DNA from: a phage
Sequence record: PZ452612.1
DNA length: 64,000 nucleotides
Direction: 5' to 3' (one strand)
In this document: positions 15,000 through 41,683 of the stretch, in pieces
How the letters are laid out: every line of letters begins with the position of its first letter
How positions within the stretch are numbered: the first letter of the stretch is position 1
Made by a program: the position numbers and the translations under genes
Notes under the pieces: model-generated
Seen by the model: the letters and a program-made list of their open reading frames with translations, nothing else
Database searches by the model: none
What the model was told of the DNA's origin: nothing

Positions 15000-15053
15000 T
15001 TCATAGGTCTATTATATCATAATATTTAGAGACCTATCTTAAAGCACGAGATA

Positions 15054-15323
15054 CTATCGGAGCAAACAATAAGCCTGAAACACTTTTTCCATTAAACGTT
15101 TGAACTCATGGATATCGATATAAAGCTCAGTAAGACCTGCATTATAAAGAAAATCTAAAAAGTTCTCATGTGTTTCGTTATAGTCGCCTTCGTTTAATTG
15201 AGATACATGAGTTTCCCAAAAACCAACACCTTTAACGAATGGAAAATACGTGACTTTCATGTATTCGTCAACATAAAATTCGCCCAGCTTTTCTTCAGTT
15301 ATACTGATTCGAGTTAATTTCAT
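15054..15323 (-). CDS. Hypothetical early protein
   Basis: 89 aa ORF in tightly packed, same-strand array. Confidence 0.4.
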   Translation of the reverse strand: MKLTRISITEEKLGEFYVDEYMKVTYFPFVKGVGFWETHVSQLNEGDYNETHENFLDFLYNAGLTELYIDIHEFKRLMEKVFQAYCLLR

Positions 15324-15547
15324 TCTAGTTCCTTTGCTGCTTCAAGAGCAGCATCCAGCGAATCAAATTGGTCAACGAAATCAATATTCAACGCATCGTC
15401 AACCGTAGCATATAACCACCATTGTTTGAATTCGTATTCAAGAATAAATCCAGGACCTTCAATCTGAGGAAGACCTAGGCTATTTGTACCAACTTCGTAA
15501 CCAGCTAGACGCAGGTCATTAATCAAAGTTTCTGTTAATACGCTCAT
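15320..15547 (-). CDS. Hypothetical early protein
   Basis: 75 aa ORF; 4-nt overlaps with both neighbours. Confidence 0.4.
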   Translation of the reverse strand: MSVLTETLINDLRLAGYEVGTNSLGLPQIEGPGFILEYEFKQWWLYATVDDALNIDFVDQFDSLDAALEAAKELE

Positions 15548-15915
15548 TTTGCCGCCTTAACAATTTTCAGGTCAACGAATTTTTTCTTACGTTGATTTTT
15601 CATACGACGGATAGTCTTTTCAGAGATTTCATGTTTCTGATAAGCTTTAGATTCAACACCAAATGCAGCAACGTCAAATTCAGAAAGAATATATTGTACT
15701 AGAATTTCACGAATAGAATTACGTCCAATTTTCTGGTCGTGTTTTTGCATGATTTCATAAAGACGGAATTCCCACGCATCAAGAACTTGAGGAGTAACAA
15801 TATTGCCAGATTCCAGAAGAGCAACAACTTTATCGAAAGCGAAAGAATTAACTACGTTTTTGATTTTAGTAGACATATTATTTTCCTCGGTTATTTTATT
15901 ATCCAACGAGGGCAT
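15544..15915 (-). CDS. Hypothetical early protein
   Basis: 123 aa ORF. Confidence 0.4.
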   Translation of the reverse strand: MPSLDNKITEENNMSTKIKNVVNSFAFDKVVALLESGNIVTPQVLDAWEFRLYEIMQKHDQKIGRNSIREILVQYILSEFDVAAFGVESKAYQKHEISEKTIRRMKNQRKKKFVDLKIVKAAK

Positions 15916-15942
15916 TATACTCTGCTCTCAAGAGTCTGTACA

Positions 15943-16182
15943 CTATTTTTTAAGCATGAAAAGCAAGTAATTTGTATCGCGTGGGCTGATATCGACACCC
16001 ATATCAAAGATACCTTTATATATTGGGTATTTGTTTTCGGTTGTATCGAAGCTGAAACTATTTCCATCACAACTAACAGTAATAGCATCTGTTAAAATGT
16101 CATACTCAATCCTAACAATTGAATCCCCAATTTTAACGTCGAGGTGTTTTTTGAATTTGATAAAATCTAATTCTTGGGCCAT
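15943..16182 (-). CDS. Hypothetical early protein
   Basis: 79 aa ORF; GAGG Shine-Dalgarno upstream. Confidence 0.4.
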   Translation of the reverse strand: MAQELDFIKFKKHLDVKIGDSIVRIEYDILTDAITVSCDGNSFSFDTTENKYPIYKGIFDMGVDISPRDTNYLLFMLKK

Positions 16183-16245
16183 GATATTTTCCTCATTTTA
16201 AGACGATAGGAAGTCATGTTATTATCTTCCTATCGTTGTATATTA

Positions 16246-16458
16246 TTAACCGAACTTTTTAGCGCCTTTCCAGCCTTCGTACATAACTGCGCAAGTCAAT
16301 AGCACGGCATGTTGGCATTCTTTGTATTTGTAAATCCAGAACCAGCGTAAAAAGTCTTCATCCTCAACACCGTTGAGTTTCATATTGGCAAAGAATTCGG
16401 CACGTTCTTCACGAAGTTGCCATGACACAATATTTTCAGGATTCATTTTGTGTTCCAC
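16246..16458 (-). CDS. Hypothetical early protein
   Basis: 70 aa ORF. Confidence 0.4.
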   Translation of the reverse strand: MEHKMNPENIVSWQLREERAEFFANMKLNGVEDEDFLRWFWIYKYKECQHAVLLTCAVMYEGWKGAKKFG

Positions 16459-16670
16459 GCCCCATTTTCATCGATGAACTTAATCCAGTCATTTACAGAC
16501 CATTTAGTTGTATCACCCTTTGGATTAACATTTAAAGTATATAATCCCTGCTTAAAAAGCATTCGTTTGATATTCATAATTTCCTCAACTGTAACGATAA
16601 CATTCGTTAGCTTTACGTTTGGCTTCAGTATGAGAAGTATTATAATCATACTCTTCTTTACTGTAAACAT
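16443..16670 (-). CDS. Hypothetical early protein (start uncertain)
   Basis: 75 aa track ORF overlapping 16585..16905; the true start may be an internal Met near 16577. Confidence 0.3.
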   Translation of the reverse strand: MFTVKKSMIIILLILKPNVKLTNVIVTVEEIMNIKRMLFKQGLYTLNVNPKGDTTKWSVNDWIKFIDENGAWNTK

Positions 16671-16905
16671 CTTTTTTCAACTTACGAACTTCTTTGCGGA
16701 GTTGTCGATTCATTTCGTTCTTGACTTCAGAATCAACGCCTTTCATACGCTTCCATTTATCAGAGCGGAATATGTTTTCAACCATGTCTTTGTGGCTAAC
16801 ACCGTCAGGAGCTTTACGTTTACCAAAATAGTCATAATCGCGAACTTTCAAATCTTTACGACGATACGTTTTACCCATAAGTACCTCAGAGGTTGATTGA
16901 TACAA
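16585..16905 (-). CDS. Hypothetical basic protein
   Basis: 106 aa, Lys/Arg-rich. Confidence 0.4.
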   Translation of the reverse strand: MYQSTSEVLMGKTYRRKDLKVRDYDYFGKRKAPDGVSHKDMVENIFRSDKWKRMKGVDSEVKNEMNRQLRKEVRKLKKDVYSKEEYDYNTSHTEAKRKANECYRYS

Positions 16906-17134
16906 CGCGTTTGATAAAATTCACTTCACTTACTGAAAGGTCTTTAAGACCGATTGATTCTAAACGCTGAGTAAGCGTCAACATCGGGATATAATCCCAA
17001 TGAGTTTTATTTGCTTGATAAGTACGAACGCCATTAGCAATTTCAACATGCAAATCGGAAATGGTAACGAATACCGGACGTTCGTCATTAACTTTAAGGG
17101 TTAGAACAACTTTCTTTGAATCTAAACTAATCAT
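16886..17134 (-). CDS. Hypothetical early protein
   Basis: 82 aa ORF. Confidence 0.4.
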   Translation of the reverse strand: MISLDSKKVVLTLKVNDERPVFVTISDLHVEIANGVRTYQANKTHWDYIPMLTLTQRLESIGLKDLSVSEVNFIKRVVSINL

Positions 17135-17352
17135 GACTTAATTTCCTTCGCAATTGAACAGAAGATACCACGGTCACAAAGCATTTCACCAATTTCTGGA
17201 TATTTGATTGAACGGTACCAAACATCCAGGCTTGAAACTCTGGTTATCTGTACTGCATTACCGTTGACAGAATAGTACTGGTCAACCTTAATTTCTTTAT
17301 CTTCAATTGTCATTTTATTTTCCTCTGTGGTAGATGGTGTTAATCTTAACAT
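17131..17352 (-). CDS. Hypothetical early protein
   Basis: 73 aa ORF. Confidence 0.4.
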   Translation of the reverse strand: MLRLTPSTTEENKMTIEDKEIKVDQYYSVNGNAVQITRVSSLDVWYRSIKYPEIGEMLCDRGIFCSIAKEIKS

Positions 17353-17480
17353 ATCTATCGAGGATGTAAACTGGTTTTATGAAAATATTTTTGATTTGAG
17401 AGGGGCACAAGGAGATAGTGAAGTGAAGATTCCAATGGATTATATTAGAAATGAGATAAAGAAGACCAGGCGGCACCTGG

Positions 17481-17804
17481 TCAATCTTCTATGATATCAG
17501 AGTCGTATCCTAATGAAATCAAGGACTTTTTAAACTCTGCAATATTCTTTTGTTTCTTATCATTTAAAAATATGACAGGATAACGAATATTAAGTGAAGT
17601 GAATCCTGCACGTTTAGCAAGAGATACGATTAAAGGTCGGTCATATTCAATCTTACCATTATTAGTGAGGACTTTATAAAATGTATAAGGAGCATTGAGC
17701 TCCTTTAAAAGTTTTGTAACAGTATAACATCCTGGACAACGTCCTACTTCTTCAGGGATGCCATAAATTTCAATCTTGTTCTTTAAGTTCGAGTTTTGTT
17801 CCAC
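17481..17804 (-). CDS. nrdH: Glutaredoxin-like protein NrdH (start uncertain, possibly GTG)
   Basis: KIEIYGIPEEVGRCPGCYTVTKLLKE carries a CPGC redox motif. The long hydrophobic N-terminal extension in the track ORF is probably not translated; a GTG at 17804 with an AGGA upstream is proposed. Confidence 0.55.
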   Translation of the reverse strand: MEQNSNLKNKIEIYGIPEEVGRCPGCYTVTKLLKELNAPYTFYKVLTNNGKIEYDRPLIVSLAKRAGFTSLNIRYPVIFLNDKKQKNIAEFKKSLISLGYDSDIIED

Positions 17805-18087
17805 GAGAAATAATTCCTTGGTAAGCCCAATAAGGAGGATTAACAGAATCCTCGCCAGAGTTTTCTTCAGGAAAATAAACCTGGATAACAAATCCAGATG
17901 CATCAAAGGTAAAATAAACCGTAGGCAGTTCACCTAACAATTCGGCACGAGCATTAATTTCTTCGAGATCTCGTTCACGTCCAGCCCAAAAACTAGGATT
18001 TAGATTACATTCGTAAAAATAATAGTCATTACCGAACATATCAAACCCCTTCCAACTCTCTACCACATACCGCTCAAAACTAATCAT
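17770..18087 (-). CDS. Hypothetical protein
   Basis: 105 aa ORF. Confidence 0.4.
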   Translation of the reverse strand: MISFERYVVESWKGFDMFGNDYYFYECNLNPSFWAGRERDLEEINARAELLGELPTVYFTFDASGFVIQVYFPEENSGEDSVNPPYWAYQGIISRGTKLELKEQD

Positions 18088-18089
18088 AA

Positions 18090-18305
18090 TTAAGCCTTTT
18101 TATCAAGAACAGAATTCAGTTTATTAGTAATTTTGTCCAAACGTTCATTGAATTCGCTGGAGGATAAACCCTTTTCCGGAGAAATTAAACTAATCACGAA
18201 AAATACACCAGTAAAAGGAATAAGAAAAATAGCTCCAACTGCCATAAACAAAAAGAACGTTACAGTTGTAAGAAAATCAGCTAAACCTTTACGAAATTTA
18301 TACAT
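18090..18305 (-). CDS. Small membrane protein
   Basis: 71 aa with a hydrophobic N-terminal segment (FLFMAVGAIFLIPFTGVFFVISLI). Confidence 0.45.
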   Translation of the reverse strand: MYKFRKGLADFLTTVTFFLFMAVGAIFLIPFTGVFFVISLISPEKGLSSSEFNERLDKITNKLNSVLDKKA

Positions 18306-18416
18306 ATTTACCCTTAATTAATTAACCAAGCATTGATAAGCAAACCATATTGCGAATAAAATTCTGGACCAAAATGAAAAATCATATCATTTATAGTATC
18401 CATAATGTAGTTCAAT

Positions 18417-18887
18417 TTAATCATGTTTCCACACCCCATTGGTATTCGACCAAAGTCGCTGATTATCTGATCCTCGCCACAGTTTTTTGGTCGGAAGATT
18501 TTTCTCATACTTCCCATCAATAATAACATCAACATATTTAAGCATTTCTAGTTGTTTAATATCTTCAAACTTATATCCTGTCCACAACCAAATGCTTTTA
18601 TTGGGATAAATATTTTTTACTGTTTGAACAATGCAATGAACAACATCTCTATTATCAGGATAGAGAGGGTCGCCTCCGGTTATAGTCAATCCTTCTATAT
18701 AATCATTATTCAAACATTCAATTAATTGTTCTAGTGTCTCTCCAGTGAATGGAGCACCATTTCTAGCGTTCCATGTTGATTTATTATAACACCCTTCACA
18801 TTTATGCAAACAACCTGTAACGAAAAGAACGACCCTGCAACCAGGGCCATTCACAAAATCGCAAGGATAAAATCTATCATAATTCAT
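18417..18887 (-). CDS. nrdG: Anaerobic ribonucleotide reductase activating protein NrdG (radical SAM)
   Basis: CLHKCEGCYN is a CX3CX2C radical-SAM motif; 156 aa; immediately downstream of nrdD. Confidence 0.9.
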   Translation of the reverse strand: MNYDRFYPCDFVNGPGCRVVLFVTGCLHKCEGCYNKSTWNARNGAPFTGETLEQLIECLNNDYIEGLTITGGDPLYPDNRDVVHCIVQTVKNIYPNKSIWLWTGYKFEDIKQLEMLKYVDVIIDGKYEKNLPTKKLWRGSDNQRLWSNTNGVWKHD

Positions 18888-20701
18888 TGGTGTTTAACCC
18901 TATGCATGATTTCTTTATTTTTACCGAGATTAAATCCGCGTTCGTTCGGATTTCCCAAATAACCGCATGTTCTTCTTATGGTGTTCATCTTTTTAGGATC
19001 AGTTTCTCCGCAAACTGAACAAACAAATCCGTTTTCAGTAGGAGTCATTTCATGGGTACTTCCACATGTAAAACATTTATCTACTGGCATATTAACACCA
19101 AAATAATCTAAATGTTGTGCAGCATAATCCCAGACAGCCTCAAGTCCCTTTAAATTGTTTTTCATATCTGGAAGTTCAACATAAGAAATGTGACCACCTG
19201 TCGCAATGAAATGATATGGCGCTTCACGAGAAATCTTTTCAAACGGAGTAATATTTTCTTCTACTGAAACATGGAAACTATTAGTGTACCAGCCTTTATC
19301 TGTAACATCTTTTACACTTCCATATTTTTCTGTGTCTAGTTTACAGAAACGATAACAAAGGTTTTCAGCAGGTGTAGAATACAAGCTAAAAGCAAACCCA
19401 GTTCTTTCAGTCCATTGTTTAAGAAGAGCATTCATTTTAGTTAAAATTTCTTGTCCAATATCACGTCCGACAAGAATATTCAATTCGTGGATACCAATGT
19501 ATCCTAAAGACACTGAACTTCTACCGTTTTTAAATAACTCAATTATGTCGTCATCAGGTTTAAGACGAACCCCGAATGCACCTTCTTGGTAAAGAATAGG
19601 AGCAACAGTCGCTTTAACTCCTTTTAAGGAACTAATTCTACACATCAAGGCTTCAAAACACAGATCCATACGTTCATTGAATAATTCAACAAATTTCTGT
19701 TCATTGAACTGTGTTCCAATATAAGAATCTAATGCGATACGAGGAAGATTCAGTGTTACAACACCGAGATTATTACGTCCATCAAGAATTTCATTACCAG
19801 TCGAATCTTTCCATACGCTCAAGAAACTACGGCAACCCATTGGAGAAACTGGAACTGAAGAACCAGTAATAGCTTTATTATTCTTAGCTGAAATAATATC
19901 AGGATACATTCTTTTGCTTGCGCACTCTAGAGCAAGCTGCTTAATATCATAGTTCGGATCGTCTTTATAAAGATTAACACCTTCTTCAACGAACATAACA
20001 AGCTTAGGGAAAATAGGAGTTATTCCATCACGACCAAGACCTTTAATGCGGTTTTTAAGAATTGCCTTCTGAATCATTCGTTCAGTCCAATCGGCCCCCG
20101 TACCAAATGTAATTGTTACAAAAGGCGTTTGTCCGTTTGAACTAAAGAGAGTATTTACTTCATATTCATAAGCTTGGAACGCGTCATAGACATCTTTTTC
20201 TGTTTTGGATTGAGCATAATTCAACGCATCAGCGATTTGCCATTTTTCCGCATCTTCAACATGTTTAGCGTATGTGCGTTTAACATAAGGAGAAAGAACT
20301 TTATCGACATTTGCAAATGTAGTTCCGCCATACTGATGTGAAGCAACTTGTGCAGTAATTTGTGCCATAATTGCAGTAGCAACACCAATCGATTTAGGCG
20401 TTTCAATTTGAGCATTGCCTAATTTAAATCCGTTCTCAAGCATCCCCTTTAAATCGACTAAACAACAATTAGTAAACGGAAGAGCAGGAGAATAATCAAT
20501 ATCATGCATGTGGATAATTCCACTTTCATGCGCATTCATAATAAAAGACGGGACCATATTTTTGGCAATGTGCTTAGACACAATACCAGCCATAAGGTCC
20601 CGTTGAGTTGGAAAAACACGAGAATCTTTATTAGCATTCTCGTTTAAAAGGTCTTTATTAGTTTTATGAATTAATCCTTCAATTTCTTTTTCAATTTTCA
20701 T
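18884..20701 (-). CDS. nrdD: Anaerobic ribonucleoside-triphosphate reductase NrdD
   Basis: 605 aa; C-terminal glycyl-radical motif RRTCGYLG and a C-terminal Cys cluster. Confidence 0.95.
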   Translation of the reverse strand: MKIEKEIEGLIHKTNKDLLNENANKDSRVFPTQRDLMAGIVSKHIAKNMVPSFIMNAHESGIIHMHDIDYSPALPFTNCCLVDLKGMLENGFKLGNAQIETPKSIGVATAIMAQITAQVASHQYGGTTFANVDKVLSPYVKRTYAKHVEDAEKWQIADALNYAQSKTEKDVYDAFQAYEYEVNTLFSSNGQTPFVTITFGTGADWTERMIQKAILKNRIKGLGRDGITPIFPKLVMFVEEGVNLYKDDPNYDIKQLALECASKRMYPDIISAKNNKAITGSSVPVSPMGCRSFLSVWKDSTGNEILDGRNNLGVVTLNLPRIALDSYIGTQFNEQKFVELFNERMDLCFEALMCRISSLKGVKATVAPILYQEGAFGVRLKPDDDIIELFKNGRSSVSLGYIGIHELNILVGRDIGQEILTKMNALLKQWTERTGFAFSLYSTPAENLCYRFCKLDTEKYGSVKDVTDKGWYTNSFHVSVEENITPFEKISREAPYHFIATGGHISYVELPDMKNNLKGLEAVWDYAAQHLDYFGVNMPVDKCFTCGSTHEMTPTENGFVCSVCGETDPKKMNTIRRTCGYLGNPNERGFNLGKNKEIMHRVKHQ

Positions 20702-21171
20702 TTTAAACTCTTTCTAAGCTGCTTTTTGAATGAAGCTATTAATTGTGTTTTAGTATCAGATTCATTATATTCAAATCCTCTTTGAAGCATCTCAGTCATC
20801 ATTTCCTCTTTACCTAGTCTTGAGAACTCTTTAGTTTTGTCTGGAACAAAATTAGGATGGATATTATTATCAGAATAATCTTGTTTCAAATAAGCAAGAA
20901 GAGCTTCAAGCCATTCGAGGTAATCAACGTTTTGACCTTTAAGACCAGAACGGTTGAACTTATGCTTCATTTGACCTTCTGCTGCATTGCACAGGTTACA
21001 TAGTAAACCACGAACCTTACCAGCTTTTGGCCCGTTTAATTCATGGTCGTGGTCAAGATGGTTACCTTGAACATCAGGGTCTAATTCACGGTGGCAAATA
21101 GGACACTTACCATTCTGTGCATCATAAAATTTTTGTTTTTCTTCTTTATATTTTGCGCCTGATAATAACAT
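20698..21171 (-). CDS. 49: Endonuclease VII (Holliday junction resolvase) gp49
   Basis: MLLSGAKYKEEKQKFYDAQNGKCPICHRELD...HLDHDHELNG matches T4 endo VII as recalled; 157 aa. Confidence 0.9.
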   Translation of the reverse strand: MLLSGAKYKEEKQKFYDAQNGKCPICHRELDPDVQGNHLDHDHELNGPKAGKVRGLLCNLCNAAEGQMKHKFNRSGLKGQNVDYLEWLEALLAYLKQDYSDNNIHPNFVPDKTKEFSRLGKEEMMTEMLQRGFEYNESDTKTQLIASFKKQLRKSLK

Positions 21172-21221
21172 GATAAACCCTTACCTTAAATAGATAAGGG
21201 TATTTATAATTTAGTAAACGT

Positions 21222-21389
21222 TATAAAAGTCTCGATGGAAACGCTTATACTGACGAATCATTCTTTTAGTAGGACGAGTTTCTGAAATAATTGAAGTCCT
21301 CATATTTGGATTGTTTGGGGCCCAATCATAATAAATTTCCAGGATTTTTGCCCATTTTTTCTTTCGCCATAAAATAGTTCAGTTTTCAT
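21222..21389 (-). pseudogene. Frameshifted, degenerate copy of the small basic-protein gene at 21814..21984
   Basis: Two reading frames together reproduce the paralog: MKTELFYGERKNGQKSWKF... in one frame and ...DWAPNNPNMRTSIISETRPTKRMIRQYKRF in another, versus the intact ...LLYRLLKNGKHDWYLLIKTDPNFFSGQPFTVRPTKRQLRKAKRSHRNFYREY. DNA similarity includes a shared TATAAAAGT..CGATG..TTTAGTAGGACGA stretch. Confidence 0.3.
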
Positions 21390-21398
21390 AATAAGCCC

Positions 21399-21812
21399 TT
21401 AACTTAAACGTCTTTCTAAATATTCAATGTATTCCGCGGCGGCTTGCATCAGATTACCTTCATAACCGTCATTATTTTCTTGACCGGCTAATTTAGCTAA
21501 AGCATAAGAAATACGTTCACCTTCGAATTCGCCAAGACCACCATCACAAACTACTTGGTCAATTTCTTCGAGTTCATCTATTGAATGGGATTCCCAGAAG
21601 CACCAAAGAGAAGTATCACGGTCATAGATGCAAAGTTTCTCACCTGTGTTCAACATCACTTCGATAATGCCATGGTCGCCATAACCATCTTCGGTAGTAG
21701 TACCAATTACCTTGATGATTGTTCCTTTCTTTAATTCAGGAAACTTGACTTGTAGTTCTTCATCTTCTTTAACAATCTTGAACCATTTACCGCGAGTTTC
21801 AGAAATATTCAT
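21399..21812 (-). CDS. Hypothetical protein (pin-like position)
   Basis: Track ORF 21399..21950 trimmed to the internal Met MNISETRGKWFKIV..., which abuts the upstream gene. Sits between 49 and nrdC where T4 has pin; no sequence match claimed. Confidence 0.4.
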   Translation of the reverse strand: MNISETRGKWFKIVKEDEELQVKFPELKKGTIIKVIGTTTEDGYGDHGIIEVMLNTGEKLCIYDRDTSLWCFWESHSIDELEEIDQVVCDGGLGEFEGERISYALAKLAGQENNDGYEGNLMQAAAEYIEYLERRLS

Positions 21813-21813
21813 A

Positions 21814-21984
21814 TCAATATTCTCTATAAAAGTTACGATGAGAACGTTTAGCTTTGCGAAGCTGACGTTTAGTAGGACGAACTGTAAATGGTTGTCCAGA
21901 GAAAAAATTCGGATCGGTTTTAATAAGCAAATACCAATCATGTTTGCCATTTTTTAATAAACGGTACAATAATTTAACTTGCAT
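21814..21984 (-). CDS. Small basic protein (56 aa)
   Basis: MQVKLLYRLLKNGKHDWYLLIKTDPNFFSGQPFTVRPTKRQLRKAKRSHRNFYREY; has a degenerate paralog about 600 bp downstream. Confidence 0.4.
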   Translation of the reverse strand: MQVKLLYRLLKNGKHDWYLLIKTDPNFFSGQPFTVRPTKRQLRKAKRSHRNFYREY

Positions 21985-22112
21985 AATAATCTCTTCCCAT
22001 TTCCATATCAATTAATTCATTTATTGAAGGTTCATCATAACACGTTTCTTCGTCGTTGTAAACTGTTTCGACGTCTGGCTCGACCGTCTCCCATCGAGCC
22101 GAATACCACGGT

Positions 22113-22469
22113 TTAACCGCGGAGTTTATTGATCTCTTCATAATCAACCCAGGATTCTAGCCCAGATGGCAAATCAGATTCAATTTCCCAAAGAAGCTCT
22201 TCAATGGCTTGCAGGCGATTATATTCTTCAACGGTAATGGTAACCATTGGTGCAACCGGTTCTGCCTTTTTAACAATCATATCGTTCATCAGGATGTAAA
22301 GGTCATCACGAACGACAGTGTCGTTCCAACCCCATGATTTGGCTTCATAAGCTAATGATGAAGGGAGCACATTTAAAACTTCAATAATAGTTGGAGCATC
22401 AGGACCAAGTTCATTGGCACAAACTTCGTATACATCTTGGAAATCTTTAAGATTTAATGAATATGTCAT
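22113..22469 (-). CDS. Hypothetical acidic protein
   Basis: 118 aa ORF. Confidence 0.45.
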   Translation of the reverse strand: MTYSLNLKDFQDVYEVCANELGPDAPTIIEVLNVLPSSLAYEAKSWGWNDTVVRDDLYILMNDMIVKKAEPVAPMVTITVEEYNRLQAIEELLWEIESDLPSGLESWVDYEEINKLRG

Positions 22470-22729
22470 TTAAAATATTCTCGTAGTTGGTCAAAGCCAC
22501 CGATCGAAGTTCCATCAGGAGCAAACACTTGAGGCATAGTCAATCCAACTTGTGATTCACGTCCAAGCTTAACCAGAAGCTCAGCAATTTTCTCATCATC
22601 AAAAACACCTTTTTCTGGCATAACGTTAATGAATTCGAATGGTTGTTTCTTAACAGTCAGCAATCGTTTCGCATTATCACAATAAATGCATTTATGAATA
22701 GTAGAGTCATACCCGTACACTTTAAACAT
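22466..22729 (-). CDS. nrdC: Thioredoxin/glutaredoxin NrdC
   Basis: MFKVYGYDSTIHKCIYCDNAKRLLTVKKQPFEFINVMPEKGVFDDEKIAELL... matches T4 NrdC as recalled; CIYC redox motif. Confidence 0.85.
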   Translation of the reverse strand: MFKVYGYDSTIHKCIYCDNAKRLLTVKKQPFEFINVMPEKGVFDDEKIAELLVKLGRESQVGLTMPQVFAPDGTSIGGFDQLREYFK

Positions 22730-23135
22730 TATTTTTCCTTTCATCGATTAAATATGCAACGCCAAATACAATACATGTAATAAAACCTGTGATACAGATA
22801 GAAACCAACAACACTGTACCAAAGAACCAAATCAGGTTATCTTTAGTAGTTTGTTTTATATCCATCTCACGAATTTCTATAGCTATAGTATCACCTTTAT
22901 TCAGAAGCGTATAAAACGACGGTGATACATGCCTGTCAAAAACTCGTCCTTGCTCATCTTTATAGACTGCAATAAATTCTAATTTAGAATATTTTCCTGT
23001 AGATTGACCTGAGATTAATTCCACTACCTCCACAGGAATTACTTTAGTTTCCATGTAAGTATTCTGACTGTTCCAAATGAATGGAATAATAGCAAAAACT
23101 AAAGCTGCGATAAAACAACGAAGGCTATATCTCAT
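22722..23135 (-). CDS. Membrane protein
   Basis: 137 aa with N- and C-terminal hydrophobic segments. Confidence 0.45.
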   Translation of the reverse strand: MRYSLRCFIAALVFAIIPFIWNSQNTYMETKVIPVEVVELISGQSTGKYSKLEFIAVYKDEQGRVFDRHVSPSFYTLLNKGDTIAIEIREMDIKQTTKDNLIWFFGTVLLVSICITGFITCIVFGVAYLIDERKNNV

Positions 23136-23440
23136 TATAATGTTCTCTCAAATTTGTGGAAGCATTTACGGCATTTCAATTTCAAGTTATCACTGGTCCA
23201 GTTAACCAGTTGGACTTGGATAGTTCCACATTCCGGACATGGATGTTTTGCTGCCGATTTGGCAGCATTTTCACGTCGTTCAACCATTTTCATGATTTCG
23301 TTCCATGCTGGAGGAACGAACTCTTCTTCACCGTGGATTTTATCTCGCTGAACAAATTCAATCTTTGAACTATCGTCAATAAACTTAACCAAGCGGTGAT
23401 TAGTGTTCATATCAATATCCTCTAAAAGACGTAGTTTCAT
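23135..23440 (-). CDS. Zinc-ribbon protein
   Basis: CPECG...CRKC C2C2 arrangement in a 101 aa ORF. Confidence 0.5.
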   Translation of the reverse strand: MKLRLLEDIDMNTNHRLVKFIDDSSKIEFVQRDKIHGEEEFVPPAWNEIMKMVERRENAAKSAAKHPCPECGTIQVQLVNWTSDNLKLKCRKCFHKFERTL

Positions 23441-24384: not shown

Positions 24385-24412
24385 AATATTTTCCTCTCGT
24401 TAAGATAGATTC

Positions 24413-24442: not shown

Positions 24443-24446
24443 TATT

Positions 24447-26519: not shown

Positions 26520-27047
26520 TTATGCGTGAACCGACTTTAAACGTTCTTCAAATTTCCGAAGAGTACTAATACGTTCTGCTTTCTGTTTTGTATAGTTTGC
26601 AATACGTTCTGAAGTGAGAGCGTATCGTTCGTTTACTGTTTCTTTCATGAAGTCAGGGATTTCACGAGAAGCTTTAATTTCATCAAACTTATCGAGTACT
26701 GCCTGGTCTTCAGCAATTAAATTTTCGTACATCTCGATATCTTTCTTGATGAAGTCGATATCTTCCTGGGTTACTTTGGATAAACGAGATGCTTTATCCT
26801 TTTTGTACTGCTCGTTAGTTTCACGAGACCAGAATAATGTACGTTTTTTGTTAGTGTTTTTGTAGACTTCCACAATTCCAACTGAATCGATGATAACAAT
26901 CCAATTCCAGCGAGATTTGAAAATCTGACCTCCGTCCACGGTAATCTCGTTACCATAAGCAATGTCATTAAAGAACTTACTTTGTGCTTCGGATTTAAAT
27001 TTACCGTCGTTATAATTTACCAGGTTGAAAATATCTTTAGCGTTCAT
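26520..27047 (-). CDS. Hypothetical protein
   Basis: 175 aa ORF. Confidence 0.45.
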   Translation of the reverse strand: MNAKDIFNLVNYNDGKFKSEAQSKFFNDIAYGNEITVDGGQIFKSRWNWIVIIDSVGIVEVYKNTNKKRTLFWSRETNEQYKKDKASRLSKVTQEDIDFIKKDIEMYENLIAEDQAVLDKFDEIKASREIPDFMKETVNERYALTSERIANYTKQKAERISTLRKFEERLKSVHA

Positions 27048-27074
27048 GTTTTACCTCCAGTAGTTGATAGGTCT

Positions 27075-27103
27075 ATAATAACATAACCATAGACCTTGTA
27101 AAC
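27075..27103 (-). promoter_or_regulatory. Early-type promoter (GTTTAC -35, TATTAT -10) overlapping palindrome AGGTCTA...TAGACCT
   Basis: Minus strand reads GTTTACAAGGTCTATGGTTATGTTATTAT upstream of 26520..27047. Confidence 0.45.
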
Positions 27104-27105
27104 AA

Positions 27106-27393
27106 CTAAAAGAAACTTTTTTCGGTATTTTTTCCACTGAACCAAACAGACTTCGGGATTTTTTGTAATTTTTCAGATTTAAGTTTCTCTTCCTGTTCTT
27201 TCTTATATACACCCTTGTCGTACTGGAGCATCTCTATGACATTCTTTTGCAAACGATCTAAGGTAATTAAGGCTTTAGTTTTTCCTTTCAAGGAAGAGTC
27301 CTGGCGAACCTCCTCGCTATATTGCATTGTAGAACTAACCATACGATGAGCATAGAGTTCGACTGCGGCTTTAATTTTTTGCATAAAATCCAT
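27106..27393 (-). CDS. Hypothetical protein
   Basis: 95 aa ORF; the overlapping 27288..27494 ORF is treated as an alternative, less likely frame. Confidence 0.35.
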   Translation of the reverse strand: MDFMQKIKAAVELYAHRMVSSTMQYSEEVRQDSSLKGKTKALITLDRLQKNVIEMLQYDKGVYKKEQEEKLKSEKLQKIPKSVWFSGKNTEKSFF

Positions 27394-27531: not shown

Positions 27532-28533
27532 TTATTTCAGTAAAGTAACTTCCGAGATTTCTTCCCAACCATCTTTATCAGTTGAAATAAAATCTGCTAC
27601 ATAAAGAGCCGTACGTAATGATACATTGCGAAGACGAGATACGTTAGCCTTCATCCAGGACAATGCTTTATACGTTTCTGCATCCGTCAGACCACGTTTC
27701 TGCATCATGTCAGTAGATAATATTACATCTTCAACTCGAACCATAATCTCTTCATTAGAGTGTACTCCAAGGTCGAGATACACTGAACGAGATACTAAAG
27801 CTTGAAGGTGTGGAGCAAGTTTCGAACCCCGTTCTAACTCTTTATCGATATCAACGTTTGTAATGAAAACGATAGTACCTTCAAACTCAAATTCTTTATC
27901 AATACCCTTATCCTCGAGATAAGATGACGCAGTGCTCCAACAAACTTTGCGTTTATCTCCGGTATCTAATGCTGCTTTAAGAAGGTTCAGGATGTCCATA
28001 TCTGAGAATACGTCAACGTCATCGATTAAGAGAACGCTGTCTTCATCACGGTTGAGCCAAAGTTGTTCGTAAAGGCCAATACCAGAGATTTTACCATTAA
28101 TGCTTTTGTATTTGATGAAACCATTATCATTAGCATTATTAAGTGCTTTATCCAGAGAATACGTCTTACCAATACCAGCTGCACCTGAAATAATGAGTGA
28201 ACGAATTTTGCCATCGATAATGCCATTCGTCATCATGTTCATTACTTTAAAGCGTTTGTTGATACGGGTTTTCATATCTTCAGTGCTTTCAACAACTGCA
28301 ACTGGTGATGTCTCAACTCCTTCCATTACGATGTCTGATTTGAAGACCCATACTCCACGTTCAGAACCATCAATCATAACGAAAATTTTACCATCACCTA
28401 AGTGGGAACATTCAGGATTAAGCTTTGCCGGGAACCAGGTCTTTGTGGCAACATAAGAACCAGAGATTTCGTTATTACGATAGATACCTTTTTTGATTTG
28501 AACGTTGAACATTTTATTCTCCAATTTACTCAT
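27532..28533 (-). CDS. P-loop NTPase (AAA-like ATPase)
   Basis: Walker A ISGAAGIGKTYS and Walker B VLLIDDVD in the C-terminal two thirds of a 333 aa ORF. Confidence 0.55.
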   Translation of the reverse strand: MSKLENKMFNVQIKKGIYRNNEISGSYVATKTWFPAKLNPECSHLGDGKIFVMIDGSERGVWVFKSDIVMEGVETSPVAVVESTEDMKTRINKRFKVMNMMTNGIIDGKIRSLIISGAAGIGKTYSLDKALNNANDNGFIKYKSINGKISGIGLYEQLWLNRDEDSVLLIDDVDVFSDMDILNLLKAALDTGDKRKVCWSTASSYLEDKGIDKEFEFEGTIVFITNVDIDKELERGSKLAPHLQALVSRSVYLDLGVHSNEEIMVRVEDVILSTDMMQKRGLTDAETYKALSWMKANVSRLRNVSLRTALYVADFISTDKDGWEEISEVTLLK

Positions 28534-28611
28534 TTCGTTTCGATAGGTCTATAGTATCATATCCTAAAAGCATGTACACTACTTTTTAAAAATATTTTAA
28601 CCCCCTAAAGG

Positions 28612-31109: not shown

Positions 31110-31216
31110 TTTACCATACTCGTTTCAATAAGATTCACTATGCCGTTTACCATGTTATAAGTAAACATCGGATAATTGTATTGTACTACAACATAAGCGA
31201 TAAGCAAAAGTTTCAT
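31106..31216 (-). CDS. Small hydrophobic peptide (36 aa)
   Basis: MKLLLIAYVVVQYNYPMFTYNMVNGIVNLIETSMVK with GGAG Shine-Dalgarno 8 nt upstream; downstream of the early promoter at 31245..31274. Confidence 0.25.
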   Translation of the reverse strand: MKLLLIAYVVVQYNYPMFTYNMVNGIVNLIETSMVK

Positions 31217-31244
31217 TTTGTTCTCCGTTTGTTTTGGTAGGACT

Positions 31245-31274
31245 ACTATAACATAGTCCTACCAAGATGTAAAC
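31245..31274 (-). promoter_or_regulatory. Early-type promoter (GTTTAC -35, 18-bp spacer, TATAGT -10) embedded in a perfect 10-bp-arm palindrome GGTAGGACTA-N8-TAGTCCTACC
   Basis: Minus strand reads GTTTACATCTTGGTAGGACTATGTTATAGTAGTCCTACC; the palindrome spans plus 31237..31264. Confidence 0.5.
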
Positions 31275-31507
31275 TACCGATTGTGTTTTAAATGTTGATA
31301 AAGTTCTTCAACTTGTTTTGGGTCTAAAACAATTAGGTCATTTTCTTGGCGAAGATAAATCCATCCCTTATCCCCAGGACCATTTTTACAAAACATTGCC
31401 ACCATATCATCATCTTCAGCGCTTTCAGGTAAAAGTTCAAGCACACCGTCTTCAGATTTTCTAGTATAATCGTAAAGCATAATATCCTCACATAATCTCG
31501 TTAACAT
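31274..31507 (-). CDS. Hypothetical protein
   Basis: 77 aa ORF. Confidence 0.4.
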   Translation of the reverse strand: MLTRLCEDIMLYDYTRKSEDGVLELLPESAEDDDMVAMFCKNGPGDKGWIYLRQENDLIVLDPKQVEELYQHLKHNR

Positions 31508-32296: not shown

Positions 32297-32323
32297 ATAT
32301 ACCTCTTGGTTAGATATTAGTAT

Positions 32324-32905: not shown

Positions 32906-32914
32906 AAGAGTCCC

Positions 32915-33321: not shown

Positions 33322-33524
33322 TATTCTTCTACATGTTGTTTACGGCCTTTCTTATCAATAAAGGTATATTCAACGAATGTTCCGATGTAGTCTTTATCTA
33401 CATCATGTGGACTATTAATTGGACATTTGGTACGACAAATGCGTTCCCATTGACGAATAATTACTGCCTTATTCTTTGGGTCATATGGATGTGGATAATG
33501 TATATTCATAATAACGGTTCCCAA
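33297..33524 (-). CDS. Hypothetical small protein
   Basis: 75 aa ORF. Confidence 0.35.
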   Translation of the reverse strand: MGTVIMNIHYPHPYDPKNKAVIIRQWERICRTKCPINSPHDVDKDYIGTFVEYTFIDKKGRKQHVEEYCLKVTWL

Positions 33525-34003
33525 TCAACAATCACAATTTCTAGTTTAGTGGAATACGTATCTAAAATCTCTTCGATGACATCCCAGTTTCCGCCACCGA
33601 TACCTGCACCAATTCTTGGCATATAAATTACAGGCTTTGTTATCTTATTCTTTCCGAATTCATTTAATTCTATTATACAATTCATTAAAGCAGAGTACTC
33701 AAAATTAGGTCCCGGCTCAAACTGCGTATAAAGATTAAAGCAATAAGCTTTATGGGTCTTAAAATATTTTTCATAAACCGAATAAGTCCCGAGTTTAGAC
33801 TCGTCTCCGAATTCGGTTTGAAGTTTATCGGCTTCCAGAATTTTTGGATAAGCCTTTGCTAATTGTCCTGCCACACCGGCGCCCATTGTATGAAAACAAT
33901 TACACCCATGAGCAATATTATTACCTTTAGAAAACAGGGCGACAATATCGCCCTTGATATAGTTTTTAATCACTTGCTGCAAGTCCTCTAGTATAAGAGT
34001 CAA
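33506..34003 (-). CDS. Macro-domain protein (ADP-ribose binding/processing fold)
   Basis: NIAHGCNCFHTMGAGVAGQLAKAYP and MPRIGAGIGGGNW resemble the two glycine-rich loops of macro domains; 165 aa. Confidence 0.55.
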   Translation of the reverse strand: MTLILEDLQQVIKNYIKGDIVALFSKGNNIAHGCNCFHTMGAGVAGQLAKAYPKILEADKLQTEFGDESKLGTYSVYEKYFKTHKAYCFNLYTQFEPGPNFEYSALMNCIIELNEFGKNKITKPVIYMPRIGAGIGGGNWDVIEEILDTYSTKLEIVIVDWEPLL

Positions 34004-34860: not shown

Positions 34861-35319
34861 CTAGATTTTAATCACTGCTTTAGAAGCTTTTCCTGGTAGT
34901 CGTTTACTGTTAATAATAGCCATTCTGCATTGAAGAGTCTTCATTTTGAATGCTGGATTTTCGCGACAAACTGTAAGTCCTAACCAAAGATTTCCATCAG
35001 TTATTTCTAAACGGCCTGGGCGATATTCGACACCTTCGACAAAATCTTCATCAACATCTGGACGGGCTGGCATTGATAAAAATTCTGCAACTTCTTTAAC
35101 ATGATTTTTTACTTTATGAAATAATTCAAAAACGTAATTCTCATCTATTTCTCTCTGGATGGCACGATCTAAGAGATGTTGAGAATACTTGATATGAAAG
35201 CCTGGTAGTCCAAGAGACTTTGCAGCATCTTTTATACTGGCATTTATTTTGCGGAACTCCGTTTCAAAGATTCGACGGAGTTTATTGCGGCGGATAAAAA
35301 CGTCTGAATTGATAGTCAT
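34861..35319 (-). CDS. regB: Endoribonuclease RegB
   Basis: MTINSDVFIRRNKLRR...YSQHLLDRAIQREIDENYVFELFHK...QCRMAIINSKRLPGKASKAVIKI matches T4 RegB as recalled; 152 aa. Confidence 0.85.
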   Translation of the reverse strand: MTINSDVFIRRNKLRRIFETEFRKINASIKDAAKSLGLPGFHIKYSQHLLDRAIQREIDENYVFELFHKVKNHVKEVAEFLSMPARPDVDEDFVEGVEYRPGRLEITDGNLWLGLTVCRENPAFKMKTLQCRMAIINSKRLPGKASKAVIKI

Positions 35320-35346
35320 TTTGATTTCTCCTCTAGTTGACAGGTC

Positions 35347-35376
35347 TATAGTAACACAACTAGAGGAGAAGTAAAC
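35347..35376 (-). promoter_or_regulatory. Early-type promoter (GTTTAC -35, TACTAT-like -10) upstream of regB
   Basis: Minus strand reads GTTTACTTCTCCTCTAGTTGTGTTACTATAGACC. Confidence 0.4.
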
Positions 35377-37520: not shown

Positions 37521-37850
37521 TTATACTCTAGGCTTTTGAGCTTGTTTGGTATTGGATTCCCATGCGGCTTTGGTAATTTTGTTAGTGGCATAACCAAAGG
37601 CATTAGATAGAACACCTTTAGAGTTGAATACATCCAATCCAATAAGTACACCGGCTGTGTTAAATTTAGGAGCAAAGTACGCATTAGTTTTAGAAAGAGC
37701 TTTTTTCAATTCAGGGTCTTGAACCAAACCATCAAAAACGCCTTTACTATTTACTTTATATGTTACTTTGGGATTTTTACCTTCTTCGATAGCAGCTTTC
37801 TGTTCCGCAGATAATGTAACTTCAGTGATAAACTCCTGATATGTTTTCAT
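37521..37850 (-). CDS. Internal (capsid-packaged) protein with N-terminal capsid-targeting sequence
   Basis: Starts MKTYQEFITEV, the conserved T4 internal-protein targeting leader; 109 aa, Lys-rich. Confidence 0.7.
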   Translation of the reverse strand: MKTYQEFITEVTLSAEQKAAIEEGKNPKVTYKVNSKGVFDGLVQDPELKKALSKTNAYFAPKFNTAGVLIGLDVFNSKGVLSNAFGYATNKITKAAWESNTKQAQKPRV

Positions 37851-37858
37851 TTTGTTCC

Positions 37859-38272
37859 TTAGTAAATTGATTTACCATAGTATTTGTACCAAGTCGGACG
37901 TTGAGCAATTTTTTCATCTAAGCGTGCTTGACTTATCGCAATGGACGCTTCGGACGGGACGTAATTATTACGAAATTCTACAGGAATGTCGGAAATATCC
38001 TGGACTGTCGTGTCCTTGATTTTGAAACCACGTTTCAAGCATTCGGCGATTAGCTCGATTTGACGTAAACGTAAAAATTCGAGTTTGTCGTAAAAGAATG
38101 TTACGTGACCTGTGCCTAAGATAAATGTTGGAGAGATTTTAAAATCCTTTACACGTTTACCGTTTTGAACATGTTTACGGACTGCACCAAATACGCGTGG
38201 TAATTCACGATACTCAGCCATAAGATGTTGGTCGGACAGTTCAGAAACAAGTGTTAAATTGATACGAGTCAT
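37859..38272 (-). CDS. denV: Endonuclease V (pyrimidine dimer DNA glycosylase) DenV
   Basis: [35 protein letters not shown]...[12 protein letters not shown] matches T4 endo V as recalled. Confidence 0.9.
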
Positions 38273-38299
38273 AATTTCCTCCAAGTAGTTGATGAATGT

Positions 38300-38329
38300 A
38301 TAGTATCAAAACTCTTGGAGGAAGTAAAC
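38300..38329 (-). promoter_or_regulatory. Early-type promoter (GTTTAC -35, TACTAT -10) upstream of denV
   Basis: Minus strand reads GTTTACTTCCTCCAAGAGTTTTGATACTAT. Confidence 0.4.
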
Positions 38330-38330: not shown

Positions 38331-38612
38331 CTATTTTTCTGAAGCGCCTGAAATATATTTTTCAAGACGTTGTTTCATCAGCGAGCCGTTCTTAGCGATT
38401 TCTTCCGGTTTATCGCACATACGCAACAAGGCTTCAAGCTTAACGATATCACTGGTGCGCTCAAATTTGCGAGTATCTATCTTACTGGCAAGTTCAGAAA
38501 TACGTGCTAATAGACTTTCAGCTTCAACCAAAGCTGCACCTAGCTTAGTTGCAAATGTGTCAGTAGCTTCGTTAAGAATAGATTCTGATAAAAATTCACT
38601 ATATGTTTTCAT
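38331..38612 (-). CDS. Internal protein (capsid-targeting leader MKTYSEFL)
   Basis: Start at the internal Met; ATG overlaps the stop of gene e. Confidence 0.6.
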
Positions 38613-39831: not shown

Positions 39832-40304
39832 TCGGTAATAAAACGTTCAACTTCATTATTCTTGGCCTTTATCTTGTCTTTATGTTCTTGTAAACTACTT
39901 TTAATAAGATTAATAATGATGGCGGCGGTACCGCCGCCAATGATGCCACCAACAACACTTATGATACTAGATGCTAATAAGATAGCAATAATATCAACAA
40001 AACTGAAAGAACTCACCTTAGTACTAAAAAACCATACCGACGGTGCAAATATAATCCATCCTGTTATCCATTGGCACTTATTGAAAAACTTTTCAAGATC
40101 AGCTTGAGTTGTTCGTATTACTTCATCGATAGGTTGATATCCATTAATGTATCTGTTCACAATAATACCTGCTGGCTGGTCGATTTTAAATTCTTGGCAA
40201 ATACGTTTCACTAAGTAGGATGGACATCCTGTCCAATCTACTGAATAGTATGAAATACCTTCATTGCCATCGTCTATATTAGACCAATATGTTTTGTTAA
40301 TCAT
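39813..40304 (-). CDS. Membrane protein
   Basis: 163 aa; hydrophobic segments WITGWIIFAPSVWFF and IIAILLASSIISVVGGIIGGGTAAIIINLI. Confidence 0.45.
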   Translation of the reverse strand: MINKTYWSNIDDGNEGISYYSVDWTGCPSYLVKRICQEFKIDQPAGIIVNRYINGYQPIDEVIRTTQADLEKFFNKCQWITGWIIFAPSVWFFSTKVSSFSFVDIIAILLASSIISVVGGIIGGGTAAIIINLIKSSLQEHKDKIKAKNNEVERFITECRNLR

Positions 40305-40990
40305 TACCAGCCTTCCATAGGGAATTCCAGATAAACTTGGGTATTGACACGAATTTCATTGGTAATCTTTTTAACTCGGTCTGTATTACGAGATACACGT
40401 CCGAACCAACGCCATCCATTACTAATTGCACGAGAACCAGTGTGCCATGTTTGCCAATCAAACTGAAGAAGAGTACGATCTGGAGCTTCCCATTTCTCTA
40501 GTTCGCCTTTTTCGATTTTTTCGAGGACTTCTTTGTGCCACTGGCGATAGATAAGTTCGCCATCAGGAATCTGACTGAACTCTGCAGTTCCTGTTGCAAA
40601 ATGAGTAGGACACACATCAGCGTTAACAAGACCAAGAATATGTTCAGACAAATAGCGAGGATTGTCATAGTCAGGTTGTCCTGCAGTAATAAAATGTTGA
40701 CCAACCGGAATATCCGGGCGTGGTACGTCATCATGGTGATAACCAGGAATAGCAGGATACCAACCAGGCATCAGCATATGGACTCGTGAATCAAATACTA
40801 CATCCGAGTCTTTCCAATCGTCAGGGAGATTTTGGATAAAGCTACGAGTAATTGGACCGCCGTTATCAAAAGCAAAATTCAAATCGCAATTAAAGAACAT
40901 AGGCTCGTTTTTAATCTGGTCATTTTTAATCGCATGAGCAAAACCACCTACTGCACGAGCTTGACTATTAAACACTTTAGAACTATTCAT
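40304..40990 (-). CDS. Hypothetical protein
   Basis: 228 aa ORF; no motif recognised. Confidence 0.45.
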   Translation of the reverse strand: MNSSKVFNSQARAVGGFAHAIKNDQIKNEPMFFNCDLNFAFDNGGPITRSFIQNLPDDWKDSDVVFDSRVHMLMPGWYPAIPGYHHDDVPRPDIPVGQHFITAGQPDYDNPRYLSEHILGLVNADVCPTHFATGTAEFSQIPDGELIYRQWHKEVLEKIEKGELEKWEAPDRTLLQFDWQTWHTGSRAISNGWRWFGRVSRNTDRVKKITNEIRVNTQVYLEFPMEGW

Positions 40991-40991
40991 A

Positions 40992-41297
40992 TTATTTTCC
41001 TCGACATTCTTTAATGAAATTTTCTAGATTGGTAGATTCAATAGCTTTTTTACGAGCTTCTGCGTGTTCTTCTTCAGACAATTTACATTTATAATTGACC
41101 CAGACGTTATGGTCGAAACTAGTCGTGGCATATAATAACAATGCTCCAACGAATAGCAAAAACGGCGATAAGAATACAAAACCAGGAACACCATCCATAC
41201 TGTAAGCCTTTTGTAATACTGCAACAGAAAGAGCTGCGTAAAAAAGTGATACAAATATTGTTAAAAGACCAATTCGGTTGGTTTCGCCTAATTTCAT
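40992..41297 (-). CDS. Small membrane protein
   Basis: 101 aa with two hydrophobic helices. Confidence 0.45.
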   Translation of the reverse strand: MKLGETNRIGLLTIFVSLFYAALSVAVLQKAYSMDGVPGFVFLSPFLLFVGALLLYATTSFDHNVWVNYKCKLSEEEHAEARKKAIESTNLENFIKECRGK

Positions 41298-41325
41298 AAT
41301 ATTCTCCTCATGTTTTAATAGGACT

Positions 41326-41355
41326 ACTATAACATAGTCCTATCATCATGTAAAC
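41326..41355 (-). promoter_or_regulatory. Early-type promoter (GTTTAC -35, 18-bp spacer, TATAGT -10) inside palindrome ATAGGACTA-N8-TAGTCCTAT
   Basis: Minus strand reads GTTTACATGATGATAGGACTATGTTATAGTAGTCCTAT. Confidence 0.5.
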
Positions 41356-41357
41356 TA

Positions 41358-41621
41358 TTAAATACCAGCTTCGCGTTTAACATAATCGACGTAAGCTTGG
41401 ATAGCTTTCTTGCTGGTAATTTTTACCTGGCCACGACCATTGCCTTCTTTAGAGTTTTTCTTAACAACTACATTACCATCTTTAACACCCCATACATGGA
41501 CGTAAGTACCGATGTTTCGGTCGTAGAACATTGCATGGTCATTGTTGTAAGAGAATGATTCATAGTTCTCTGTCAAAGCAAAAGATTCGGATTCTGCGAT
41601 AAATTCTTTATACGTTTTCAT
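41358..41621 (-). CDS. Internal protein (capsid-targeting leader MKTYKEFIAE)
   Basis: 87 aa; N-terminus matches the T4 internal-protein leader. Confidence 0.7.
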   Translation of the reverse strand: MKTYKEFIAESESFALTENYESFSYNNDHAMFYDRNIGTYVHVWGVKDGNVVVKKNSKEGNGRGQVKITSKKAIQAYVDYVKREAGI

Positions 41622-41653
41622 TTATTTTTCCGTTTGGTTGTTTTGATAGGACT

Positions 41654-41683
41654 ACTATAACATAGCCCTATCAAGATGTAAAC
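41654..41683 (-). promoter_or_regulatory. Early-type promoter (GTTTAC -35, 18-bp spacer, TATAGT -10) inside palindrome GATAGGACTA-N8-TAGCCCTATC
   Basis: Minus strand reads GTTTACATCTTGATAGGGCTATGTTATAGTAGTCCTATC. Confidence 0.5.

Follow-up and report, generated by a model that had tools for sequence, protein, structure and literature searches.

Palindromes on early promoters of a Mosigvirus phage are probable PeSL cassettes of the T-even/RB69 type

Introduction

In the phages RB49 and phi1, early promoters are combined with stem-loops that lie mostly between the -35 and -10 hexamers or overlap the -10, and these units are known as promoter-early stem-loops or PeSLs (Arbiol 2010, PMC2839356). 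They cluster in hyperplastic regions, serve the shuffling of modules and can give rise to excised mini-circles, and terminator activity was demonstrated in a reporter assay for RB49 PeSL211/210 (Arbiol 2010, PMC2839356). PeSL-like elements that flank T-even internal-protein genes, and that are built on T4 early promoters with weaker, AT-richer stem-loops, were credited in the same paper to Repoila 1994 (Arbiol 2010, PMC2839356). PeSLs were then extended to PST/T4 and nt-1/KVP40 (Comeau 2014, PMC4122927). Here, a family of palindromes is described in a 64,000-nucleotide stretch of phage DNA (record PZ452612.1), the whole of which is referred to as the window. The palindromes are a rediscovery of this element type, which was already known: they are probably T-even/RB69-type PeSL cassettes, with both hairpin and recombination-linker roles.

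A second point of comparison is provided by T4 genes e, soc, 49 and I-TevI, where hairpins associated with an internal promoter sequester the ribosome-binding site. The palindromes resemble these in that the promoter lies inside the hairpin, and in that read-through RNA would fold while promoter-proximal RNA would not. They differ in that the 3' arm ends at about +3, leaving the Shine-Dalgarno region free, and in that the internal promoter is early here and late or middle in T4. For the T-even internal-protein loci, Repoila et al. in 1994 reportedly described a repeat of ~70 bp, in which an inverted repeat overlaps a T4-type early promoter and which flanks internal-protein genes sharing an 11-residue leader. 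The same arrangement is seen at 41293-41686, around gp154 and ipI. The description covered the two internal-protein loci only, whereas the cassettes studied here are also found at nrdC.8, at gp126 and at several sites outside the window.

With the RB49/phi1 PeSLs, the elements share an intergenic early promoter with a stem-loop overlapping the -10, many repeats in variable early regions, a location upstream of small function-unknown genes and a presence at insertion, deletion and replacement junctions of close relatives. The stems differ, being made of a G-run and a C-run in RB49 and AT-richer here (GATAGGNCTA), as do the promoters, which are of the TTGACA type in RB49 and of the GTTTAC type here. 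Furthermore, terminator activity and mini-circles were shown in RB49/phi1 only. The PST/T4 and nt-1/KVP40 PeSLs have in common with them TTTACW-N17-TAYWAT promoters, AT-rich stem-loops, degraded 'half' PeSLs and a location near indels. In PST, the stem lies just upstream of the promoter and has an AGNA-loop-TCNT consensus, whereas here it encloses the -10. Those features of PeSLs that can be read from sequence were found in this phage: a promoter, an overlapping stem, an intergenic and repeated distribution, and an association with breakpoints.

Results

The palindromes and their location

The phage belongs to the genus Mosigvirus, the RB69-like branch of the T4-type phages. The full 64 kb differs from positions 43750-107749 of NC_041864.1 at a single base (window 29769), and 100% identity to the Escherichia coli O157 typing phages 6, 3 and 13 is found over window 14000-34000. 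All genes of window 1-45490 are on the minus strand. The palindromes lie in the early, variable stretch, which includes gene 55, nrdD, the nrdC.x genes, tk, regB, denV, e and the ipI locus.

A sequence-only reading of the window had listed six palindromes in intergenic DNA, overlapping early promoters. All six are present when the sequence is read directly, and every arm position is intergenic, compared to 5.8% intergenic DNA in window 1-45490. The pattern TAGGNCTA-N6-16-TAGNCCTA has three exact matches, relative to 0.00 expected from 100 shuffles. At 27069, 8 bp of the claimed half-site pair and its outer GAT is unpaired. The promoter overlap holds at 27103, 31274, 41355 and 41683; it does not at 15003, where GTTTAC is absent, or at 16203, where the -10-like TATTAT is on the opposite strand.

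One copy had been missed by that reading, a promoter at 28542-28579 that carries the 3' arm TAGACCTATC only. At least five further full copies are present in NC_041864 outside the window, giving at least nine copies of this geometry genome-wide, none of them in the late structural block. Rfam covariance models produced 0 matches at the gathering threshold in window 14000-43000. In the literature, no usable RNA-seq maps of T4 start sites or terminators were found.

The 3' arm is the start region of the promoter

The elements at 27103, 31274, 41355 and 41683 have, on the minus strand, an A-rich upstream region, GTTTAC, a spacer of 17 or 18 nucleotides and a TGn-extended TATAGT or TATTAT. They are predicted to be textbook T4-type (sigma-70) early promoters. 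To place them in context, for each annotated minus-strand start in the whole NC_041864 record the best promoter lying upstream was collected, resulting in 41 intergenic early promoters. In this set, the -10 is followed by the consensus A G N C C T A T C A A, with +1 being the A after T: 78% have C at -3, 83% have T at -1 and 73% have A at +1. In RB69, C has likewise been noted as preferred at positions -3 to -1 (Nolan 2006).

The 41 predicted early promoters have AGNCCTATC as their start-site consensus, and this is the 3' arm of the palindromes. Read this way, TAGNCCTATC, the 3' half-site that recurs, combines the last bases of the -10 with the predicted genus-wide start region, and it also occurs at promoters without a palindrome (42038, 28579 and 35376). 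The 5' arm is the promoter spacer from about -25 to -16, which is complementary to -7 to +3, with the -10 in the hairpin loop. A palindrome is thus formed because the 5' arm in the spacer complements the start region of its own promoter. The predicted +1 falls inside the 3' arm in each of the four full promoters (Table 1). The cassettes occupy short gaps between two minus-strand genes and are followed by a Shine-Dalgarno sequence and start codon.

The hairpin upstream of gene 55 is only a partial promoter match, as it surrounds a perfect extended -10, TGATATAAT, without a GTTTAC -35. A TGCTTTA motif, which resembles a MotA box, lies nearby at window 15036-15050 and is conserved upstream of this hairpin in Mosigvirus, Tequatrovirus and Dhakavirus. 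A MotA-dependent middle promoter was considered here and rejected, as the TGCTTTA box is 23 nt from the conserved TATAAT and 11-13 nt are needed.

Conservation and strand bias of the stem

When folded as RNA, the hairpins have z scores of -2.1 to -5.2 relative to shuffled controls, with stems of 8-12 bp enclosing the -10. Among the 41 early promoter regions, 14 have z < -2. A wider set of hairpins was drawn from this genome, related phages and T4-like IMG/VR loci. For the last of these, the matches listed for GTTTAC-N15-TGNTATAGT were mostly chance matches in unrelated contigs, and only loci with at least two promoters were kept; a stricter promoter pattern resulted in 20 stretches only. At least 48 hairpins with the same geometry were found, and their arms differ widely: examples are GATGAGGTA/TACCTCATC (T4 ipI), GATAGGGTA/TACCCTATC, GTGTAGGAG/CTCCTACAC, GGTACAGGT/ACCTGTACC and GGTGGAGTT/AACTCTACC.

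Across 29 in-register sequences among the matches listed, 9 of the 10 pairs changed on both sides (40 cells), in a set that was chosen for pairing in this register and in which many rows are related by descent. None of 500 shuffles reached this level and slid registers scored far lower. Comparisons of orthologues provide cleaner evidence of covariation than this set. The arms of the gp126 promoter are GGTAGGACTA/TAGTCCTACC here and GGCAAGGTTA/TAATCTTGTC in Tequatrovirus JB75, which amounts to three double compensatory changes and two G·U pairs. Those upstream of gene 55 are ATAGGTCT/AGACCTAT in Mosigvirus and ATAGATCT/AGATCTAT in Tequatrovirus AR1, again a double compensatory change. Structure and not sequence appears to be under selection, with pairing kept by compensatory change.

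The imperfections of the stems are unevenly divided between the strands. Under a helix selection rule that treats G·T and A·C alike, sense-strand G·U was counted in 29 cells (21 arm combinations) and A·C in 10 cells (8 combinations), a bias that is modest and made up of events that are not independent. Several of the A·C cases belong to doubtful elements, and both imperfections within the window (41317/41344 and 41651/41666) are G·U on the minus strand. In addition, the stem is retained where the promoter has been flipped or lost, as seen at the 16203 locus in this phage, p000y and LF82-2. The G·U bias, together with survival of the stem without a promoter, is taken as support for a role of the sense-strand RNA. 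The sequence-only reading had placed the symmetry in the DNA and not in the transcript; this does not hold, as read-through RNA from upstream promoters would carry the whole palindrome and the stem imperfections are mostly sense-strand G·U.

Recombination junctions and the gp154 cassette

The cassettes are near-identical intergenic repeats of 45-66 nt. Those at 31212-31277 (the reference), 41293-41358 and 41621-41686 form a 66-nt direct-repeat family with 82-83% identity. A recombination hotspot had been offered by the sequence-only reading as one explanation of the palindromes, and junctions are indeed found at the elements: the homology of relatives stops at cassette edges (41345/41355, 41616, 31274/5 and 28551), in agreement with the published PeSL model. 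Here, the homology of AV114 ends at 41355, the first base of the -35, and that of JK36, ATK47 and p000y at 41345, while that of moskry sets in at 41616, on the start codon of gp154. For Tequatrovirus, the nrdC region is homologous as far as 31274/5. In Shf125875, the junction upstream of nrdC.10 is at TATAGACCTATC, where homology begins (28551, the half copy). The association between breakpoints and cassettes comes from a descriptive comparison with relatives.

The gene gp154, annotated as hypothetical, lies between two of the cassettes and shares its internal-protein leader with ipI and gp145. Its product is probably an internal protein that is injected, and the gene a swappable module. A query spanning 40900-42150 was covered to at least 80% in only 2 of 912 matching records. 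In the ATK47 record, Ip7 is annotated as 'flanked by 43 bp direct repeat'.

Other repeats are found at the junctions of this region. A leader segment of 30-40 nt encoding MKTY(Q/K)EFI is repeated at 37820-37859, 38583-38612, 41592-41621 and 41952-41981. In JK36 and p000y, two additional genes (Ip10 and one other) form a 624-nt cassette that sits exactly between two leader copies at the 37820-37859 site, so that the leader itself would also be a recombination linker. In JK36 and ATK47, an extra gene, 49.3 (282 nt plus the repeat), is present at 22449-22483, flanked by a 35-nt gene-end/gene-start repeat (…GAGAAxATTTTAAATGA). This indel uses microhomology at a translationally coupled junction and not a promoter cassette. 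The cassettes therefore appear to be one preferred linker among several.

Around window 41298-41357, the order of genes after ipI also differs between phages. In this phage, only gp154 stands between ipI and the e.x genes; ipI is followed in moskry, ATK47 and T4 by tRNA.4, tRNA.3 and the tRNA-gene block. The NC_041864 record falls short of most relatives by ~8-10 kb, and exchange between cassettes may have removed the tRNA block.

Loop inversion at 16203

The element at 16203, between gp096 and gp095, exists in two orientations. In this phage, NBG1, p000y and Shf125875, the sense-strand loop is TAATAACATG (the flipped form). In ATK47, phiC120, JK36, mar005P1 and APCEc01 it is the reverse complement, C/TATGTTATTA (the forward form). 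The inverted unit is a 10-nt loop with TGT-TATTAT between 12-bp arms. The forward form is a normal cassette, with ATGTAC, an N18 spacer that includes TGT, TATTAT and CTTCCTATC, and is predicted to be an ordinary early promoter for gp095. In the flipped form, which is that of the window, the gp095 promoter is removed and an extended -10 is created on the plus strand, antisense to gp096.

Both forms are widespread. With 71-nt queries against ~115 Mosigvirus records, the forward form was found in ~76 at >=95% identity, and the flipped form in 17 at >=95% and 26 more at 90-95%. The upstream variant AATATAC is common to this phage (flipped) and DCP548 (forward, with a loop that is 2 nt longer), and the variant AATGTAC to NBG1 (flipped) and JK36 (forward). 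The presence of both orientations on both upstream variants suggests recurrent inversion, or exchange within the arms. In LF82-2, a compensated stem, GGTAGGAAG/CTTCCTACC, is kept and the -10 is absent. No flipped loops besides that at 16203 were found among the T4-like loci compared.

The flip fits hairpin-templated strand switching, which is known as a mutational route. By this route, a -10 in a palindrome loop could constitute an invertible promoter switch that needs no recombinase, an idea that is doubtful at present. Should flipping be frequent within phage populations, the element would be a promoter switch, and this might extend to other PeSLs.

A sister class of early promoters

Some early promoters have the 5' arm in the same place and a different 3' partner. 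Here, the spacer (TTCTCCTC...) pairs with the downstream Shine-Dalgarno region (…GAGGAGAA) in stems of 7-14 bp, and three such promoters are listed in Table 1. The two arrangements can replace one another: the spacer of the nrdC.8 promoter pairs with the start region in Mosigvirus and with the Shine-Dalgarno region in JB75 and IME281. The promoters at 35376 and 38329 thus pair spacer and Shine-Dalgarno region in the manner of the T4 hairpins that sequester ribosome-binding sites. In the sister class, read-through RNA would hide the ribosome-binding site and a RegB-type GGAG, and promoter-proximal RNA would not.

Table 1. Coordinates of the promoter-associated hairpins and of gp154 in the window; start positions are predicted, and folds are of RNA
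Feature	Position	Strand	Promoter elements and other sequence features	Pairing	Fold (kcal/mol)	z
Probable PeSL cassette upstream of gp154	41621..41686	-	-35 GTTTAC 41683-41678; -10 TATAGT 41659-41654, TG at -15/-14; predicted +1 A 41647	5' arm 41663-41672, 3' arm 41645-41654; 10 bp including one G·U at 41651/41666 (A·C on +)	-18.9	-4.4
Probable PeSL cassette upstream of gp153	41293..41358	-	-35 41355-41350; -10 TATAGT 41331-41326; predicted +1 41319	arms 41335-41343 / 41318-41326; 9 bp plus outer G·U 41344/41317 (A·C on +)	-18.4	-5.2
Probable PeSL cassette upstream of gp126	31212..31277	-	-35 31274-31269; -10 TATAGT 31250-31245; predicted +1 31238	arms 31254-31265 / 31234-31245; perfect 12 bp, 8-nt spacer	-20.7	-4.6
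Probable PeSL cassette upstream of nrdC.8 homologue	27047..27108	-	-35 27103-27098; 17-nt spacer; -10 TATTAT 27080-27075; predicted +1 27068	arms 27089-27096 / 27069-27076; 8 bp	-18.1	-3.7
Half copy, early promoter with 3' arm alone	28512..28579	-	GTGTAC 28579-28574; TACTAT 28556-28551; TAGACCTATC 28551-28542
Hairpin around extended -10, upstream of gene 55 (late sigma factor)	15003..15036	-	extended -10 TGATATAAT	arms 15029-15036 / 15003-15010; 8 bp, 18-nt spacer	-13.5	-2.1
Hairpin between gp096 and gp095, probable PeSL with inverted -10 loop	16203..16236	-		arms 16203-16213 / 16226-16236; 11 bp, 12-nt spacer	-14.8	-4.0
Sister-class early promoter	35319..35376	-		spacer TTCTCCTCTAGTTG with Shine-Dalgarno region CAACTAGAGGAGAA	-21.6	-4.7
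Sister-class early promoter upstream of denV	38272..38329	-		spacer CTTCCTCCAAG with Shine-Dalgarno region CTTGGAGGAAG	-20.0	-5.5
Third sister-class promoter	31667-31723	-		spacer with Shine-Dalgarno region
gp154, internal-protein-type gene	41358..41621	-	N-terminal MKTYKEFIAE leader; between cassettes 41293-41358 and 41621-41686

Discussion

The cassettes would act at two levels. Transcripts from a cassette's own promoter would be without the hairpin, because the predicted start lies within the 3' arm and the 5' arm is left out. The hairpin would then fold only in read-through RNA that comes from the next promoter upstream; folding in single-stranded DNA is possible and less likely. In that RNA, the hairpin may delimit the upstream transcription unit at its 3' end, either by attenuation or by stabilising the 3' end or setting a processing boundary for the upstream cistron. 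At the level of DNA, the cassettes would supply T4-type recombination with portable homology, through which gene cassettes such as gp154 would be deleted, inserted or swapped.

Several observations weigh against this combined reading, in addition to the make-up of the covariation set and of the wobble count. The 5' and 3' ends referred to here are predictions, with the +1 positions inferred from the -10. No U-tract follows the hairpin at any element, and without a T-tract the terminator role of one GC-rich RB49 stem-loop may not carry over to this phage. When sense and antisense folding energies were compared for the 41 promoter regions, the result was 20 vs 20 (p = 0.59), and a sense bias is confined to hairpins spanning the -10 and to the tally of wobble pairs. 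Of five indel junctions in close relatives, three were made at other microhomologies (22449-22483, 32918-32922 and the leader at 37820-37859). Finally, as the inverted loop at 16203 shows, the arms interact in the DNA as well.

The last point bears on the view that the palindromes are DNA-level hairpin or cruciform signals for the recombination or replication machinery, with promoter overlap and RNA folding being secondary. Here, the 16203 loop has been inverted, apparently more than once, which needs intrastrand or arm-to-arm DNA events. The edges of the cassettes are recombination junctions, and a recombination protein that binds the stem-loops has been speculated upon (Arbiol 2010, PMC2839356). 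Homologous recombination between direct repeats of 45-66 nt already accounts for these junctions, however, and other junctions use microhomology that is not palindromic. Arms of 8-12 bp with spacers of 8-19 nt are poor cruciform formers, and cruciform extrusion was dropped from consideration on account of these short arms and long spacers. The excess of G·U over A·C is also unexpected for a duplex palindrome. A primary signal in the DNA is thus considered unlikely.

The sequence-only reading had proposed a site for a dimeric DNA-binding regulator. Even less support is left for an operator of this kind, with a sequence-specific regulator placed over the -10, one candidate for which would be a factor that shuts off T4-type early promoters. 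A palindrome centred on the -10 is what classical operators look like, several copies are near-identical, and the mechanism of early-promoter shut-off has been described as not understood (Hinton 2010; Uzan and Miller 2010). The half-site is not conserved as sequence, however: 9 of 10 pairs vary on both sides, and orthologous promoters pair the spacer with the Shine-Dalgarno region instead. Varied arms with compensatory changes argue against a protein that reads a fixed half-site. Only about one-quarter of the early promoters have this geometry, the others pairing spacer with Shine-Dalgarno region or being without a stem, and the 3' half-site recurs at promoters that have no 5' partner. Furthermore, imperfections that are strand-asymmetric, as the sense-strand G·U pairs are, would not be expected of a symmetric protein site. 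An operator is accordingly regarded as highly improbable.

It is also very unlikely that the elements are classical rho-independent terminators that overlap promoters by accident. In favor of terminators, the PeSL literature names the stem-loops terminators or attenuators, strong termination was shown for one RB49 stem-loop (Arbiol 2010, PMC2839356), and the hairpins lie 10-15 nt past the upstream stop codon. Against this, an A-rich tract (AAAACAA) and not T comes after the 3' arm, +4 to +10 being mostly A. A terminator scan flagged none of the elements, and the same scan detected a genuine T-tailed hairpin at ~28600-28625. The elements do not appear to be classical intrinsic terminators.

The reading as PeSL cassettes, with a hairpin in read-through RNA and a linker role in recombination, thus remains the probable one. 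It adds to the published picture in three small ways. The recurring 3' half-site is the predicted genus-wide start-site consensus, the strand bias of the wobble pairs points to a role of the stem at the RNA level, and one cassette has undergone a natural loop inversion that flips its -10. For the window itself, the value lies mainly in annotation, namely of the early promoters, their predicted starts, and gp154 as a putative internal-protein cassette between two exchange sites. More broadly, elements of this type would organise the expression of many small early genes in T4-type phages, and in published work PeSLs are the linkers by which host-range and defence-related cassettes, such as those of the internal proteins, are shuffled.

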